DNA from: a phage
DNA: 42,659 bases
Sequence record: PZ386954.1
Reading direction: 5' to 3' (one strand)
Both the position numbers and the translations under genes were made by a program. Below are positions 3,999-42,320 of the stretch, piece by piece. The notes under the pieces are model-generated. The model was not told the origin of the DNA, made no database searches, and saw only the letters and a program-made list of their open reading frames with translations. Position 1 is the stretch's first letter; each line of letters opens with the position of its first letter.

Positions 3999-4194
3999 GG
4001 GTATCCGAAAGCTGAGGCAATGAACAGGCCGTGGGTGCAATACCCCGGCTTGAAAATTGACTATTTGTACGTGCCCCTCCCTCGACCCAAATGACCGCGC
4101 GTACCCCCATGACGTGTGCGCGGTTTAGCCTCGCGACGTGCGCGGTATTGTCTCGCGTGCGCTGCGCGGCGCGTCGAAAGGATTGCCTGCGTTC

Positions 4195-4600
4195 GGTATA
4201 GCTCGTGCGTGTCGCGTTTCATCGTCTGCCGTGTGGCGTGCTGTGCGCTGTCCTGCTGGCTGTGCTGTGTGCCTGCTGTGTGGGCTATCGGTGGCGGTGT
4301 GGTGCTGTCCTGTGGGGACGCTCTGCGCTGGCTGTGCGGTGCTGTGCGCTGCGCGTGGTCGGGCGGGTATCTGTCTCTTTTCGTGGCGCGGCGTGGTGCT
4401 GTGTGGTGGCGGTGGTGGCGGTGGTGCTGTCCTGTCTGCTGGTCTACTGTCTGCGCCTCCAGCTCTGCGCGTCATGCTCTGCTCCTGTCTGTCACCTGTC
4501 CTACTGCCTTCACGTTCTGCCGTCTGTCAGTCCTACGGCCTGCCATCCGTCATCCGTTCGGCGCTCGCTTGTTTCGGCTGCGCCGCGCTCGCTCTGCGTA
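4195..4600 (+). repeat. non-coding, extremely A-depleted (G/T/C-only) tract with short degenerate repeats (GCTGTGCG, GGTGGCGGTGGTG, CTGTC); probable genome-terminus or terminal-repeat region
   Basis: by direct count only 4 A residues in 4201-4440; overlapping ORFs in all frames here are low-complexity composition artefacts. Confidence 0.7.
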
Positions 4601-4605
4601 TCTAG

Positions 4606-4634
4606 CGATACTATATCACTATAGACACTTTCAT
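4606..4634 (+). promoter_or_regulatory. conserved element CGATACTATATCACTATAGACACTTTCAT; contains TCACTATAG identical to T7 promoter -8..+1; inverted near-identical copy at 25549-25580
   Basis: TCACTATAG at 4616-4624; about 130 bp upstream of the first sigma70 promoter, a T7 phiOL-like position. Confidence 0.45.
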
Positions 4635-4760
4635 TTACTTATTGATTTATAAGGATTTATTTACTGTATTCAATCGGTATTCTATCCAGTGTTAGGATTA
4701 TCTAATCAAACTTTAATCCTAATGATTACAGTAACTTATCACTTTTCTTGAAAATAATAC

Positions 4761-4789
4761 TTGCAAAGGTATTCGGTATTTGCTGTAAT
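4761..4789 (+). promoter_or_regulatory. sigma70-type early promoter P1 (TTGCAA-N17-TGcTGTAAT)
   Basis: -35 TTGCAA 4761-4766, 17-bp spacer, extended -10 TGc + TGTAAT 4784-4789, AT-rich upstream (AAAATAATAC). Confidence 0.7.
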
Positions 4790-4866
4790 TCATCTCGCCG
4801 GACAACACAGCGTCAACGTGTTGGACGGTGTAGGACGGTAACACTGCTCTTTAACAATCTGGTGTG

Positions 4867-4895
4867 TTGACAAGGCAAGCTCACTATGCTGTAAT
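4867..4895 (+). promoter_or_regulatory. sigma70-type early promoter P2 (TTGACA-N17-TGcTGTAAT)
   Basis: -35 TTGACA 4867-4872, 17-bp spacer, TGcTGTAAT ending 4895. Confidence 0.75.
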
Positions 4896-5004
4896 GCTTC
4901 CACGTCAGCCAGACAAGCCAAATAGTGATGGATAAACACGTTAACACCCACGCAGGCTAACTGGTACGGTTTAATTAACTCTGAACGGGCGCTGATTAAA
5001 TCGG

Positions 5005-5033
5005 TTGACAGGATGAAACGAGTATGCTGTAAT
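5005..5033 (+). promoter_or_regulatory. sigma70-type early promoter P3 (TTGACA-N17-TGcTGTAAT)
   Basis: -35 TTGACA 5005-5010, 17-bp spacer, TGTAAT 5028-5033. Confidence 0.75.
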
Positions 5034-5085
5034 ACACACCAGATTGACAGGGCAGCAAGCCAGTCAGTCAGAAGTAAAAAGGTAG

Positions 5086-5114
5086 TTGACAAGCTGAATA
5101 CGATGTGATGTAAT
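5086..5114 (+). promoter_or_regulatory. sigma70-type early promoter P4 (TTGACA-N17-TGaTGTAAT)
   Basis: -35 TTGACA 5086-5091, 17-bp spacer, TGTAAT 5109-5114. Confidence 0.75.
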
Positions 5115-5570
5115 CAGCACCGAGTTGAAAGGATGGAAAGCATCCTGCTCTGAGTGAACGCAAACTGGCCGCGTAGTGTCACGGCTCACTGGGTATCCGC
5201 CGCAGGTTGGAACTGGGTGAGGCATCGCCGAAAGGCAACGGTATCGCAACAATGCTAACGCCGTAGGGGTAGCGCCTGATGCAAGGTAACGGAGAAGCGC
5301 GATAGACGCAGCGCAGTATCAGCACAATACCAAACGTCTTATAAGGCGCGGAGTGAAGCGGGTAGGTAGGCAAGCTGGTAACGGTGAGCCGGACTGCTGG
5401 AGGACTCCTGAGAGTGGATGCAGACAATATCCACGGCGCGAAATGGGCGGGGCGATTTTTCAGGGTAGTGAATCCGACAAGCCAATCAATGCCAACGAGT
5501 GCAGACTGTACGGCGCGTCACAATGGGTTCACTATCCACCTGAAAATAGCCAACAACTGGAGAAATTAAT

Positions 5571-5960
5571 ATGTACCGTATCTATGCAAGCGCATATCGT
5601 CAGGGCAACGCTGAGTCAGTCAATCTGGCGCTTCATTGCAAGGCACTGCGAACGGTGCAGGACATGTTCGGAGTGGTTCCGGTCACACTGACAGGCAAGT
5701 TCGACAATGCGTATGAGTTAAGCATGGTCTTCCCTGTCGATGGAATCTACGAAATCCGACAGGCTGTTAAGCTGTTTTGTAAAGCCTTCGAACAGGACTG
5801 CATCATGGTAGTGACCAAAGACGACGATGCAATCTTCATGGACTCACCGTATCCGGGTAAGCCTGCTGGCAAGCTGGTCAGCAAGACTAACGAGGAAATG
5901 GAAGCCGGGCAGCATACCGCTTGGACTTACGATGGTGAGCAATTTTGGGTAGTGGAGTAA
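5571..5960 (+). CDS. first early protein (129 aa), function unknown
   Basis: ATG with GGAG Shine-Dalgarno; first ORF downstream of the early promoter cluster. Confidence 0.65.
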   Translation: MYRIYASAYRQGNAESVNLALHCKALRTVQDMFGVVPVTLTGKFDNAYELSMVFPVDGIYEIRQAVKLFCKAFEQDCIMVVTKDDDAIFMDSPYPGKPAGKLVSKTNEEMEAGQHTAWTYDGEQFWVVE

Positions 5961-6133
5961 GGAGCATGACTATGTTCACTGCACTGTGTGTTATTGCGGC
6001 GGCGTGTTGGGTTATTGACCAGCGCCTGCCTAAGCGAGCCTGATATGTGGGACTTACTGGTAGCGTTATTCTGGTTCGTCTTTGCAGGCTTGTGGATTTA
6101 CTGGCTGACTCGTCCCAAATTATGGTGACTGCC

Positions 6134-6720: not shown

Positions 6721-6795
6721 GCGGGATTGACTCAAGCCAGTGTCAAGGCGCTGGCTTTATGGCAATTCTGCCCCAACCTATTCGGAGTATTACCC

Positions 6796-7086: not shown

Positions 7087-7112
7087 TGCTGCATCCTTGC
7101 GAGGGTGCAGCG
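7087..7112 (+). other. intergenic RNA hairpin, 10-bp stem, loop TTGCGA, followed by conserved leader cassette
   Basis: TGCTGCATCC / TTGCGA / GGGTGCAGCG; then GGCAATAGTGCC mini-hairpin and ...CCGAGGGTTTTAATATG. Confidence 0.6.
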
Positions 7113-7148
7113 TGGCAATAGTGCCTTACTCAATCCGAGGGTTTTAAT

Positions 7149-7497: not shown

Positions 7498-7519
7498 CTG
7501 CCTCGTTGCGACGGGGCAG
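7498..7519 (+). other. intergenic RNA hairpin, 8-bp stem, loop TTGCGA, followed by conserved leader cassette
   Basis: CTGCCTCG / TTGCGA / CGGGGCAG; then GGCAATCATGCC and ...CTGAGGATTTATTATG. Confidence 0.6.
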
Positions 7520-7555
7520 TGCGGCAATCATGCCCCAATCTACTGAGGATTTATT

Positions 7556-8110: not shown

Positions 8111-8134
8111 CAGCCCATCCATAGCGGTGGGCTG
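8111..8134 (+). other. intergenic RNA hairpin, 9-bp stem, loop CATAGC, followed by conserved leader cassette
   Basis: CAGCCCATC / CATAGC / GGTGGGCTG; then GGCAATCATGCC and ...CTGAGGGTTTTACCATG. Confidence 0.55.
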
Positions 8135-8171
8135 TAGGGCAATCATGCCACAACTAACTGAGGGTTTTACC

Positions 8172-39939: not shown

Positions 39940-42320
39940 TGGCGAACAGCTATAATACTTACGTGGCGAACGGTTCACAGACCGCATTCCTCGTCACGTT
40001 CGAGCAGCGCGTGTTCACTGAGATTCAGGTGTACCTCAACTCCGAACTCCAGACGAGCGGATACACCTACAACTCTGTGACCAAACAGATTGTCTTTGAC
40101 ACCGCCCCGCCAATCGGGGTGATTGTCCGACTCCAACGCTACACCTCCGATATTCTGCTTAACAAGTTCGGTCAGGACGCTGCCTTCACGGGCAGCAACC
40201 TCGACGAGAACTTCGAGCAGATTCTGTTTAAGGCTGAGGAAACTCAGGAAGCATGGCTCGCGCCGCTTGACCGTGCCGTCCGTGTTCCGAACTCCGAAGT
40301 CTCCATCAACGCTTTACCGAACGTCGCTGGTCGCCGCAACAAAGCACTGGGCTTTGATAGTAATGGCCAGCCGTTCATGATTCCTCTGGTTGATATTCCT
40401 GACTCCGCGCTGGCTATTGCACTCGCAATGAATGACGGCGGTAAATGGATTGGTACACTGGGCGGCGGTACGTTCCTCGACCGTCAGGATACTGTGTGCC
40501 TGTCAGAGTTCACCAACAACACTGGTTACGCGTCAGTTAGCGCTGCTGTGCAGGCTTGCTTTGACTATGCCGCAGCCAACAATAAAGTAGTGGATGCTCG
40601 CGGCTGGGTAGGCACGCTAAACGCCAACGTCACGATGACAAATATTGAGGTTGTCGGCGGTACGTGGAAAGGCACATCTGACGTGTTTATCGTTAACTCG
40701 CTGTTCCGCAACTTCGAGATTAATAACCTGCGCCTGCGTCCATATGGCGGCGATGTTCGTATCCGCTATGGCTTATTTGATGGTAAGCCCACGCTGAGTA
40801 AAGTGGCGAGCATTATGCTCCAAGCTATCCCAGCCGCTGGCACCATTGAGGTCACAGATTGCGAGTTCCGAAATGGTCTATATGGTATCTTGCAGCAAGG
40901 CACTGGCGAGGTGATGACGCGTGGCCTGTTTCGTAACCTGTCGTTCTATGACATGGGTGGTGATGGGATTGAGCTGAACGTTGTGCAGAAACACTACGAT
41001 GATGGCTGTCTAATTGAGAACATCGTTCTTGAGAACATAGACAGTACAGGTCAGGCACCTATCAATAACTCCAACTGGGGTATCGGTATTGGTGTGGCTG
41101 GTAGTTCTCCATATGGTTTGGATACTCCAGACAGCTATTATGCCAAGAACATTACCATTCGCAACGTCAAGGCACGACGCTGCCGTCAGGTTGTTCACTT
41201 TGAGCAGGTTCGTGATTCGCTTATCGAGAACATCGACGGCGACCCCGACCAGAACGTGTCTAACGGCTCCGGCCTGACTATGGCCACTGTGCTGTGCTAC
41301 GGTGCGCGTCGCGTTACCATCAACGGTGTACGCGGTGAACCAGTGGTCACAGAGGGTACTGACCCGCATAGCATCCGCATTGTGATGCTGGAGTGGGGTA
41401 CTAACGCCGGGATTGGCGCACGCGGGCCATGTCAACACATGACTGTGCGCAACGTGTCATCCCGTAATGGGCGCTTCTATGCTGGCGTAGGCTGTCAGGC
41501 TGTAGGGCTAGACAATACAGCAACGTTCGAGAACATCGACTGCTATAACTTCCGAGTGTTCGGCGTAGCGCGTGAACTTAATCTAGCCAACATCACCTGC
41601 ACAGTGTTTGACTGTATCGGCGATGATTCTGCTGGCGGTACTTCGTCCAACGGGTATCTGGCTGTCGGTCGCACAACGCTCAATATGACCAATGTTAACG
41701 CACTGTCTGAGGACTTGGTAGCCAATCAGGGCTGGAGCCGCTGTGCATACTCGTATGTGTCCAGCGTGGCATCCAACGTGTACGCACGTCCGTATCCCCG
41801 CCAAGGGATTGATGGTGGCATTGGTGTACCTGTGCGGCCCAGCAACCGTGTGTACGTGATGCCGGATGCTGCTGATGTGAATATCACAGACTGGGATGGT
41901 ACTCAGTTCCCTGCCGGACGAGAGTTCGTAGAGGGTGACTTGATTATGCGTACTGATGGTAAGTTCTTTACGGTAACTCGCAGTGGTGCCTATATTCCAG
42001 CTATTGCCGAATATCGGGTCAAAGCTGCGGCAGCAGGTCAGACGTACCTCGCCAGCAATTACCCTATGGATGGTAACAAAGGGTCAATGGTTTGGATTTA
42101 CAGATACATGCTGACGCCCGGCACCCATATCAATATTCCGGGAGCTGGTGCAGGCGGCGGAGTATTACATACCACCATTGCTCGCGGCCCGTACCGTACG
42201 GACGTGAACAACCCTACCAGTGAGATTCGCGTCGGCATTAGTGACCCTATCGTCACAGCTATCCCGGCAGGTACTCAGCTATCCGCCACGTACCCAATCT
42301 CGTTCCGTACACCAACATAA
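39939..42320 (+). CDS. tail fibre / tailspike with T7 gp17-like N-terminal anchor and parallel beta-helix-like C-terminal region (possible polysaccharide depolymerase)
   Basis: 793 aa; N-terminal MANSYNTYVANGSQTAFLVTF...; C-terminal recurring N-I-x-I-x-N-V rungs (ENIVLENID, NITIRNVKA, MTVRNVSS, FENIDCYNF). Confidence 0.75.
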   Translation: MANSYNTYVANGSQTAFLVTFEQRVFTEIQVYLNSELQTSGYTYNSVTKQIVFDTAPPIGVIVRLQRYTSDILLNKFGQDAAFTGSNLDENFEQILFKAEETQEAWLAPLDRAVRVPNSEVSINALPNVAGRRNKALGFDSNGQPFMIPLVDIPDSALAIALAMNDGGKWIGTLGGGTFLDRQDTVCLSEFTNNTGYASVSAAVQACFDYAAANNKVVDARGWVGTLNANVTMTNIEVVGGTWKGTSDVFIVNSLFRNFEINNLRLRPYGGDVRIRYGLFDGKPTLSKVASIMLQAIPAAGTIEVTDCEFRNGLYGILQQGTGEVMTRGLFRNLSFYDMGGDGIELNVVQKHYDDGCLIENIVLENIDSTGQAPINNSNWGIGIGVAGSSPYGLDTPDSYYAKNITIRNVKARRCRQVVHFEQVRDSLIENIDGDPDQNVSNGSGLTMATVLCYGARRVTINGVRGEPVVTEGTDPHSIRIVMLEWGTNAGIGARGPCQHMTVRNVSSRNGRFYAGVGCQAVGLDNTATFENIDCYNFRVFGVARELNLANITCTVFDCIGDDSAGGTSSNGYLAVGRTTLNMTNVNALSEDLVANQGWSRCAYSYVSSVASNVYARPYPRQGIDGGIGVPVRPSNRVYVMPDAADVNITDWDGTQFPAGREFVEGDLIMRTDGKFFTVTRSGAYIPAIAEYRVKAAAAGQTYLASNYPMDGNKGSMVWIYRYMLTPGTHINIPGAGAGGGVLHTTIARGPYRTDVNNPTSEIRVGISDPIVTAIPAGTQLSATYPISFRTPT

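Follow-up and report, generated by a model that had tools for sequence, protein, structure and literature searches.

Four tandem sigma70-type sites near the left genome end of a Bonnellvirus phage as probable early promoters with a conserved G at -11

Introduction

The tandem sigma70 promoters of phage T7 are the point of comparison for the cluster described here. In the T7 sequence of Dunn and Studier, dating from 1983, A1 is reportedly at position 498, A2 at 626 and A3 at 750, followed by R0.3 at about 890 and gene 0.3 at 925. Phage T3 has the same layout, and its gene 0.3 is a SAMase. Work from the Molineux laboratory reportedly concerns the part of host transcription in internalization of the T7 genome. 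In promoters of this type, adenine at -11 is normally near-obligatory: sigma70 flips this base out of the helix and into a pocket of its region 2, which nucleates melting. Promoters that match the consensus in full are known to have escape as their limiting step.

Among phiKMV-like genomes, the closest case with experimental mapping is that of Pseudomonas phage LUZ19. Five strong host promoters (P002-P006) were located at its far left by ONT-cappable-seq, and four of the five, those of sigma70-like type, drive E. coli reporters (PMC10914365). The record of Pantoea phage LIMEzero (FR751545, Waewaevirus) lists a "Putative Pantoea specific promoter" at 801-847, 928-974 and 1399-1445, an annotation that is itself a prediction. 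For the Bonnellvirus coliphages whose GenBank records we examined, promoter annotation is absent, and the word "promoter" is not used in the Bonnellvirus paper PMC7552041.

Here we describe four tandem sites in a phage sequence of 42,659 nucleotides (PZ386954.1; the whole of this stretch is called the window below). The original prediction had read them as near-consensus, and hence strong, host promoters arranged like the early cluster of T7. We consider their sequence, position and conservation, the RNA that would be made from them, and the one base at which all four depart from the -10 consensus.

Results

Genome context and the first early gene

The window is a Bonnellvirus genome (Autographiviridae, phiKMV-like, T7 supergroup), 93% identical to phage aldrigsur and sharing 83-93% DNA identity with about 20 Escherichia, Enterobacter, Pantoea, Kosakonia and Cronobacter phages of the genus, among them aldrigsur, altidsur and J8-65. 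It is circularly permuted, with the TerL start codon at position 1 (ORF 1-1737; the J8-65 TerL is also 1737 nt). The J8-65 record describes a linear genome with 259-bp direct terminal repeats at 1-259 and 40723-40981, genes all on one strand, and, in keeping with phiKMV-like gene order, a single-subunit phage RNA polymerase gene about 17 kb from the left end. The start of J8-65 gives the approximate left physical end in the window, and the right boundary of the terminal repeat is extrapolated from the 259-bp repeat of that phage (Table 1).

The region 4082-4600 comprises the terminal repeat and a G/T-rich, strand-skewed stretch (AT skew -0.26) holding short imperfect tandem repeats (GTG x 11, GTGGTGGCG x 2.7 and GCTGTGCGCT x 3.2). 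Long ORFs cross it, for example at 4116-4652, and hypothetical proteins are annotated over the equivalent positions in the GenBank records of HHU8, forsur, Kc261 and Lidtsur; these are probably spurious.

The first early gene encodes a SAM lyase, with its ATG about 1490 bp from the inferred left end, and is annotated "anti-restriction SAMase" in the records of J8-65 and the Danish Bonnellvirus phages. The product is 100% identical to the versions in IMGVR_UViG_2751185941_000001 (42,657 bp) and phage LF82-23. Searches based on it returned only members of the same genus and distant Erwinia and Pantoea phages; one of these matches, Era103, has no TGTAAT promoter. Nearly all the other small early genes are of unknown function. 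Hairpin-forming repeats of about 39 nt (GGGCAGTGCGGCAATCATGCCCCAATCTACTGAGGA...) are found at 6752-6790, 7514-7552 and 8129-8167, and also at 7090-7117 and 7499-7526 (repeat families D2 and D6), directly upstream of several of these small genes, and may be processing sites, terminators or phage promoters.

Table 1. Coordinates of the features discussed, numbered from the first base of the window
Feature	Position	Strand	Description
Left physical genome end and direct terminal repeat	4082..4340, approximate	+	J8-65 position 1 aligns at window 4082
AT-rich tract upstream of the P1 -35	4737..4760	+	TATCACTTTTCTTGAAAATAATAC; 79% A+T, 99.9th percentile of 24-nt windows
P1	4761-4789	+	TTGCAA-17-(TGC)TGTAAT; -35 at 4761-4766, -10 at 4784-4789; predicted start ~4796-4797
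Hairpin at predicted P1 transcript 5' end	4796..4830	+	MFE fold begins at first base
P2	4867-4895	+	TTGACA-17-(TGC)TGTAAT; predicted start ~4902
P3	5005-5033	+	TTGACA-17-(TGC)TGTAAT; predicted start ~5040-5041
Hairpin at predicted P3 transcript 5' end	5042..5069	+	-14.0 kcal/mol, z = -6.4, 0/200 shuffles as stable
P4	5086-5114	+	TTGACA-17-(TGA)TGTAAT; predicted start ~5121-5123
Structured leader common to transcripts from all four predicted promoters	5115..5570	+	Non-coding, 455 nt
Long irregular hairpin just before ribosome-binding site	5451..5555	+	Stems of 8, 11 and 3 bp; bulges of 3 nt and 5 nt
SAM lyase ("SAMase", anti-restriction), first early gene	5571..5960	+	Pfam PF23780, 96.7 bits vs cut-off 28

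Four tandem sites with one architecture

Sequence reading and pattern searches bear out four tandem sigma70-type sites as originally described, each with a -35 hexamer, a 17-bp spacer, and TG ahead of TGTAAT (Table 1). The -35 hexamer matches TTGACA at six of six positions in P2-P4 and at four of six in P1, and every site has the extended -10 TG at -15/-14 together with T at -12 and T at -7. Start-to-start distances from P1 to P4 are 106, 138 and 81 bp, so that the spacing of about 100-140 bp first given for the cluster holds for the first two intervals and not for P3-P4. The window holds three exact matches to TTGACA-N17-TGTAAT, and 100 dinucleotide-preserving shuffles of the whole of it hold none; allowing up to two mismatches adds only P1 and a single minus-strand site at 41994. 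P2-P4 are also the top three sigma70 matches in a scan of both strands across the 42.7 kb. A generic consensus promoter scan misses all four sites because it demands A at position 2 of the -10 box, where P1-P4 have G. Promoter scans found no further sigma70-like sites between the genome end and the first gene. A fifth TTGACA, at 5044-5049, has no promoter attached and falls inside the hairpin at the predicted P3 transcript start.

The -35 boxes of P1-P4 are about 680, 786, 924 and 1005 bp from the inferred left end, which places the four sites roughly 680-1030 bp inside the genome, after the terminal repeat and before the first gene, co-oriented with all genes.

Conservation across Bonnellvirus

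In an alignment of the window with 16 relatives (17 genomes, substitutions counted per column), only 2 of the 56 columns of the hexamers and TG are variable, compared with 245 of 744 other non-coding columns and 29 of 56 columns at the first 14 spacer positions, the most variable part of the region (Fisher p ~1e-8 for the column comparison). The -35 hexamers show a single substitution across the 17 genomes, none of the eight TG columns varies, and TGTAAT is invariant save for one copy, the P4 box of smaasur, which reads TGAAAT. At least five unrelated P1 spacer sequences occur, 17 or 18 nt long, and the P1 hexamers are kept in the 16 relatives; the P4 spacer likewise varies in sequence and length (17 or 18 nt). 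P2 hexamers are identical in all relatives except Lidtsur. All 17 genomes carry the sites, with variants in three: smaasur as above, Lidtsur, where a deletion between repeated boxes has fused P2 and P3 into one hybrid promoter (518-546), and BHUENT7, which has an 86-bp insertion between P1 (422) and P2 (612).

Selection thus acts on exactly the bases that sigma70 contacts and not on the spacers, a pattern as predicted from contacts by sigma regions 4, 3.0 and 2. The retention of two short boxes at a flexible distance of 17 or 18 bp, with the sequence between them free to change, is the signature of a two-part sigma-factor site. The toggling of spacer length in particular fits a sigma factor, since a rigid DNA-binding dimer or a phage RNA polymerase would not tolerate it.

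Searches beyond the genus were of uneven value. A scan of IMG/VR for TTGACA-N14-TGNTGTAAT gave at least 120 single matches, apparently chance and uninformative, and a metagenome scan with the leader motif TTCAGGGTAGTNNATCCG also gave at least 120, among which, of those listed, only one contig (L245) had the 3' partner motif; that contig is another Bonnellvirus. An IMG/VR scan for GGCGCGTCACAATGGGT returned two Waewaevirus-like contigs (L019 and L024) and two unrelated coding matches (L021 and L023). Each of the two Waewaevirus-like contigs has one TGTAAT promoter and others with different -10 boxes, such as TGC-AACTAT. No homologue of the promoter and leader region was found in E. coli genomes.

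Elements around the predicted promoters

The core TGAAAATAAT of the AT-rich tract upstream of P1 is invariant in all relatives of the 17-genome alignment. Conserved AT-rich tracts also precede P4 (95th percentile) and P2 (90th percentile), and all three look like UP elements.

Stable hairpins start 0-3 nt downstream of the positions where the P1, P3 and P4 transcripts are predicted to begin; for the predicted P2 transcript no convincing 5' hairpin was found. In the usur haplotype, the P1 hairpin has another stem sequence within the same outer stem (z = -2.9), and in a third haplotype (HHU8) it folds weakly. The P4 hairpin shows compensatory changes, GGATG/CATCC in some genomes corresponding to GGTTG/CAACC in others.

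Two further conserved blocks adjoin the cluster. The block GCTCTTTAACAATCTGG at 4846-4862, just 5' of P2, is invariant in all Bonnellvirus genomes and present in Waewaevirus-like genomes; in L024 a TTAACA-17-(TGT)GATAGT promoter takes its -35 box from this block, which in LIMEzero is part of the annotated promoter at 928-974. Upstream of P1, TATATCACTATAG at 4611-4624, which nearly all relatives retain, matches the CACTATAG promoter core of T7-group phages, and its placement is akin to that of T7 phiOL upstream of A1. We considered a T7-like phage promoter at this site, where TATCACTATAG (4614-4624) resembles the CACTATAG core, as does CACTATCC at 5530-5537, and rejected it: the motif does not recur (3 matches vs 3.85 expected) and so is not a general phage promoter consensus.

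A structured leader RNA

Transcripts from all four predicted promoters would share a non-coding leader: indels that distinguish the relatives disrupt every reading frame in it. It is conserved into Waewaevirus, with homologues at 1434-1894 in LIMEzero, 8676-9163 in L024 and 5944-6367 in L019. RNAalifold, applied to 19 sequences, predicts 79 pairs in the leader, with 98.6% of cells paired. Compensatory double changes occur at 22 of these pairs, a number that none of 500 column shuffles reached (7.8 +/- 1.7), in a structure derived from the same alignment on which it was tested; when partners were slid by 1-3 columns as a control, 1-5 compensatory pairs were counted, compared with the 22 observed. 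The 455-nt leader is a conserved structured RNA with strong covariation. Rfam gave no match for the whole window at the gathering threshold, nor for 4000-6000 at E<=1.

The strongest element of the leader is the long irregular hairpin just before the ribosome-binding site (-38.2 kcal/mol, single-sequence z -1.75). Its 11-bp stem carries a double compensatory change in LIMEzero (GA->UC with UC->GA), and by analogy with R0.3 of T7 and T3 it is a candidate RNase III processing site. Several more covarying helices are formed by the remainder of the leader, with a possible closing helix between the P4 start and the SD region.

Comparison with described early promoter clusters

The original comparison with T7 A1/A2/A3 stands up well: the sites are co-oriented and upstream of a SAM lyase gene, past the terminal repeat and some 0.7-1.0 kb in from the left end. 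Both clusters consist of several sigma70-type promoters in tandem, spaced about 80-140 bp apart, in which TTGAC-type -35 boxes are combined with 17-bp spacers; both are a few hundred bp inside the leading end, past the terminal repeat and pointing into the genome; and both are followed by a long hairpin and an anti-restriction gene as first cistron, here a SAM lyase as in T3. The differences are that there are four promoters here and three in T7; that the -10 boxes here are uniformly TGTAAT with an extended TG, whereas the T7 A promoters (GATACT, TAAGAT and TACGAT) keep the -11 A and are not uniform in this way; that downstream of the last promoter there is a multi-helical leader of about 455 nt here compared with one of about 175 nt in T7; and that the phage RNA polymerase gene is about 17 kb downstream here but 3 kb downstream in T7.

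LUZ19 shares with the window the broad genome type and a promoter cluster upstream of the first gene, and is likened to it by position, not by sequence. It belongs to another genus and infects another host, and its sites are experimentally mapped, whereas those of Bonnellvirus are predicted. In LIMEzero, two of the three annotated sites are positional homologues of P1 and P4 (TTGTCA-17-TGTAAT and TTGACG-17-TGTAAT), followed by the same structured leader and first gene; this phage differs in having three sites rather than four, weaker -35 boxes, and, in intact relatives, an extra ORF between sites. This ORF, of 114 codons (MHPITLKAAF...), is located between the P2- and P4-equivalents in Waewaevirus-like genomes (8233-8577 in L024) and is absent in Bonnellvirus; in LIMEzero itself it is split by a frameshift and unannotated (988-1336). 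The presence of TGTAAT sites in both Bonnellvirus and Waewaevirus indicates that the cluster and its TGTAAT box predate the split of the two genera.

Discussion

The evidence makes it very probable that Bonnellvirus uses the four sites as its early (class I) promoters, launching its first genes by means of host sigma70 RNA polymerase. The host early-promoter reading given at the outset has gained from the selection on the hexamers and TG, from the annotated homologues in LIMEzero and from the mapped promoters of LUZ19. In this respect the cluster is an ordinary early promoter set of the T7/LUZ19 type, newly described for Bonnellvirus. The left end of the linear genome would enter the cell first, and host RNA polymerase with sigma70 would bind the four tandem sites by way of the consensus -35, the 17-bp spacer, the extended -10 TG and TGTAAT. 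Rightward transcription would then produce the structured leader, the SAM lyase message and those of the other early genes. The stable hairpins on three of the four predicted transcripts (P1, P3 and P4) probably protect their 5' ends, and RNase III probably acts on the long hairpin that precedes the first ribosome-binding site. If the analogy with T7 holds, transcription that starts in the cluster probably also aids internalization of the remainder of the genome.

The strictly conserved G at -11 is the only scientifically unusual point of the cluster. It is the single mismatch of the -10 boxes to TATAAT (position 2), so that none of the four sites has A at -11, and all copies share it: those of 17 Bonnellvirus genomes, those of one metagenome contig, and four of Waewaevirus-like type. 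That the base is invariably G, and not merely any base other than A, suggests selection for G at this position. Alternative -10 registers were checked by hand. A TATGCT box would imply a 12-bp spacer and TAATNN, which lacks -7T, one of 19 bp, and AATNNN also fails; since no alternative register keeps both -11A and -7T in all four sites, these registers were rejected. Replacing A by T at -11 weakens RNA polymerase binding about 300-fold in a promoter with an extended -10, and nearly 1000-fold in one with a consensus -35 (Mekler & Severinov, PMC3753650). The original step from near-consensus to strong is consequently not supported as stated, because the mismatch falls on the base most critical for melting, and the strength of P1-P4 is a prediction.

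A literature search for mapped TGTAAT promoters returned only the CR promoter of the AhdI restriction-modification system, other matches being mostly prediction tables or unrelated. The start of this promoter, mapped in E. coli, follows a TGTAAT box, and the promoter is weak and dependent on the activator C.AhdI (PMC2275141). The mapped start implies that a TGTAAT hexamer can function; the AhdI promoter differs from the present sites in its weak -35 (TGGACT) and 18-bp spacer, and is not a phage early promoter. Because promoters without -11A exist (PMC2275141), the G weakens the description of P1-P4 as canonical strong promoters, not their description as sigma70-type sites.

It is possible, if unlikely, that the four sites bind RNA polymerase without being autonomous strong promoters, the G at -11 making them melt poorly, so that they depend on outside help (high negative supercoiling, a host activator, or a phage protein injected with the DNA) or are tuned to be weak or easily shut off. 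The persistence of this G in all copies across two genera, while the spacers diverged freely, speaks for such a reading, as do the importance of the -11 adenine for melting (PMC3753650) and the activator requirement of the AhdI promoter (PMC2275141). However, the sites are optimal in every other respect (consensus -35, 17 bp, TG, -12T and -7T), which can make up for a single unfavorable base. The four share no activator-like site conserved at a fixed distance, and the spacers, where a promoter-overlapping activator would bind, vary freely; early promoters must, moreover, work before any phage gene is expressed. The best reading is that the consensus -35, the optimal spacer and the TG compensate for G at -11 in promoters of the sigma70 type.

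A more far-reaching possibility, which we regard as doubtful and less probable than poor melting, is that the main early product is the structured non-coding RNA of about 450 nt, with a function of its own (for example as a decoy, an anti-defense RNA, or an RNA directed at RNA polymerase or the ribosome), and that the invariant G at -11 marks a specialized promoter subclass that opens in a tuned or factor-dependent way. The covarying leader RNA is in any case a separate lead, apart from the promoter finding.

The two remaining alternatives deny that host sigma70 is what reads the sites. Four direct repeats (family D7) in a non-coding region adjoining the genome end might be origin iterons, packaging signals or operators, with the resemblance to promoters incidental, and ACA...TGT does give each site a weak 3-bp inverted symmetry; but iterons and operators are conserved over their whole length, whereas here only the sigma70-matching hexamers and TG are kept, the 14 bases between them are the most variable and the spacer changes in length, and indels have shifted the distances between copies without loss of copies (the BHUENT7 insertion and the Lidtsur fusion), all of which makes this reading very improbable. 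Least probable of all, by a little, is recognition by a phage-encoded polymerase or sigma factor: the phage does encode its own single-subunit RNA polymerase, and P4 TGTGATGTAAT (5103-5114) resembles tgTGATGTtata, a motif assigned to the sigma factor of Salmonella phage 7-11 (PMC4331800), probably by coincidence, but promoters of single-subunit polymerases are contiguous motifs of about 20 bp rather than two-part, phage promoters recur before middle and late genes while this motif is found nowhere else in the genome, no sigma-like product is apparent in nine early ORFs searched (PHROGs, with Pfam on the first two), and, as the sites precede the first gene, nothing phage-encoded would be available at that time.

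As early promoters read by host RNA polymerase, the four sites would fix the start of the infection program for the Bonnellvirus coliphages, and they would extend the T7/T3 layout of terminal repeat, tandem host promoters, probable processing hairpin and SAM lyase to a phage with phiKMV-like gene order. If they are as active as their position implies, they would provide a test case for the replacement of the -11 adenine by an extended -10 together with a consensus -35. They are also compact candidate promoter parts, and natural targets for engineering or attenuating Bonnellvirus phages.
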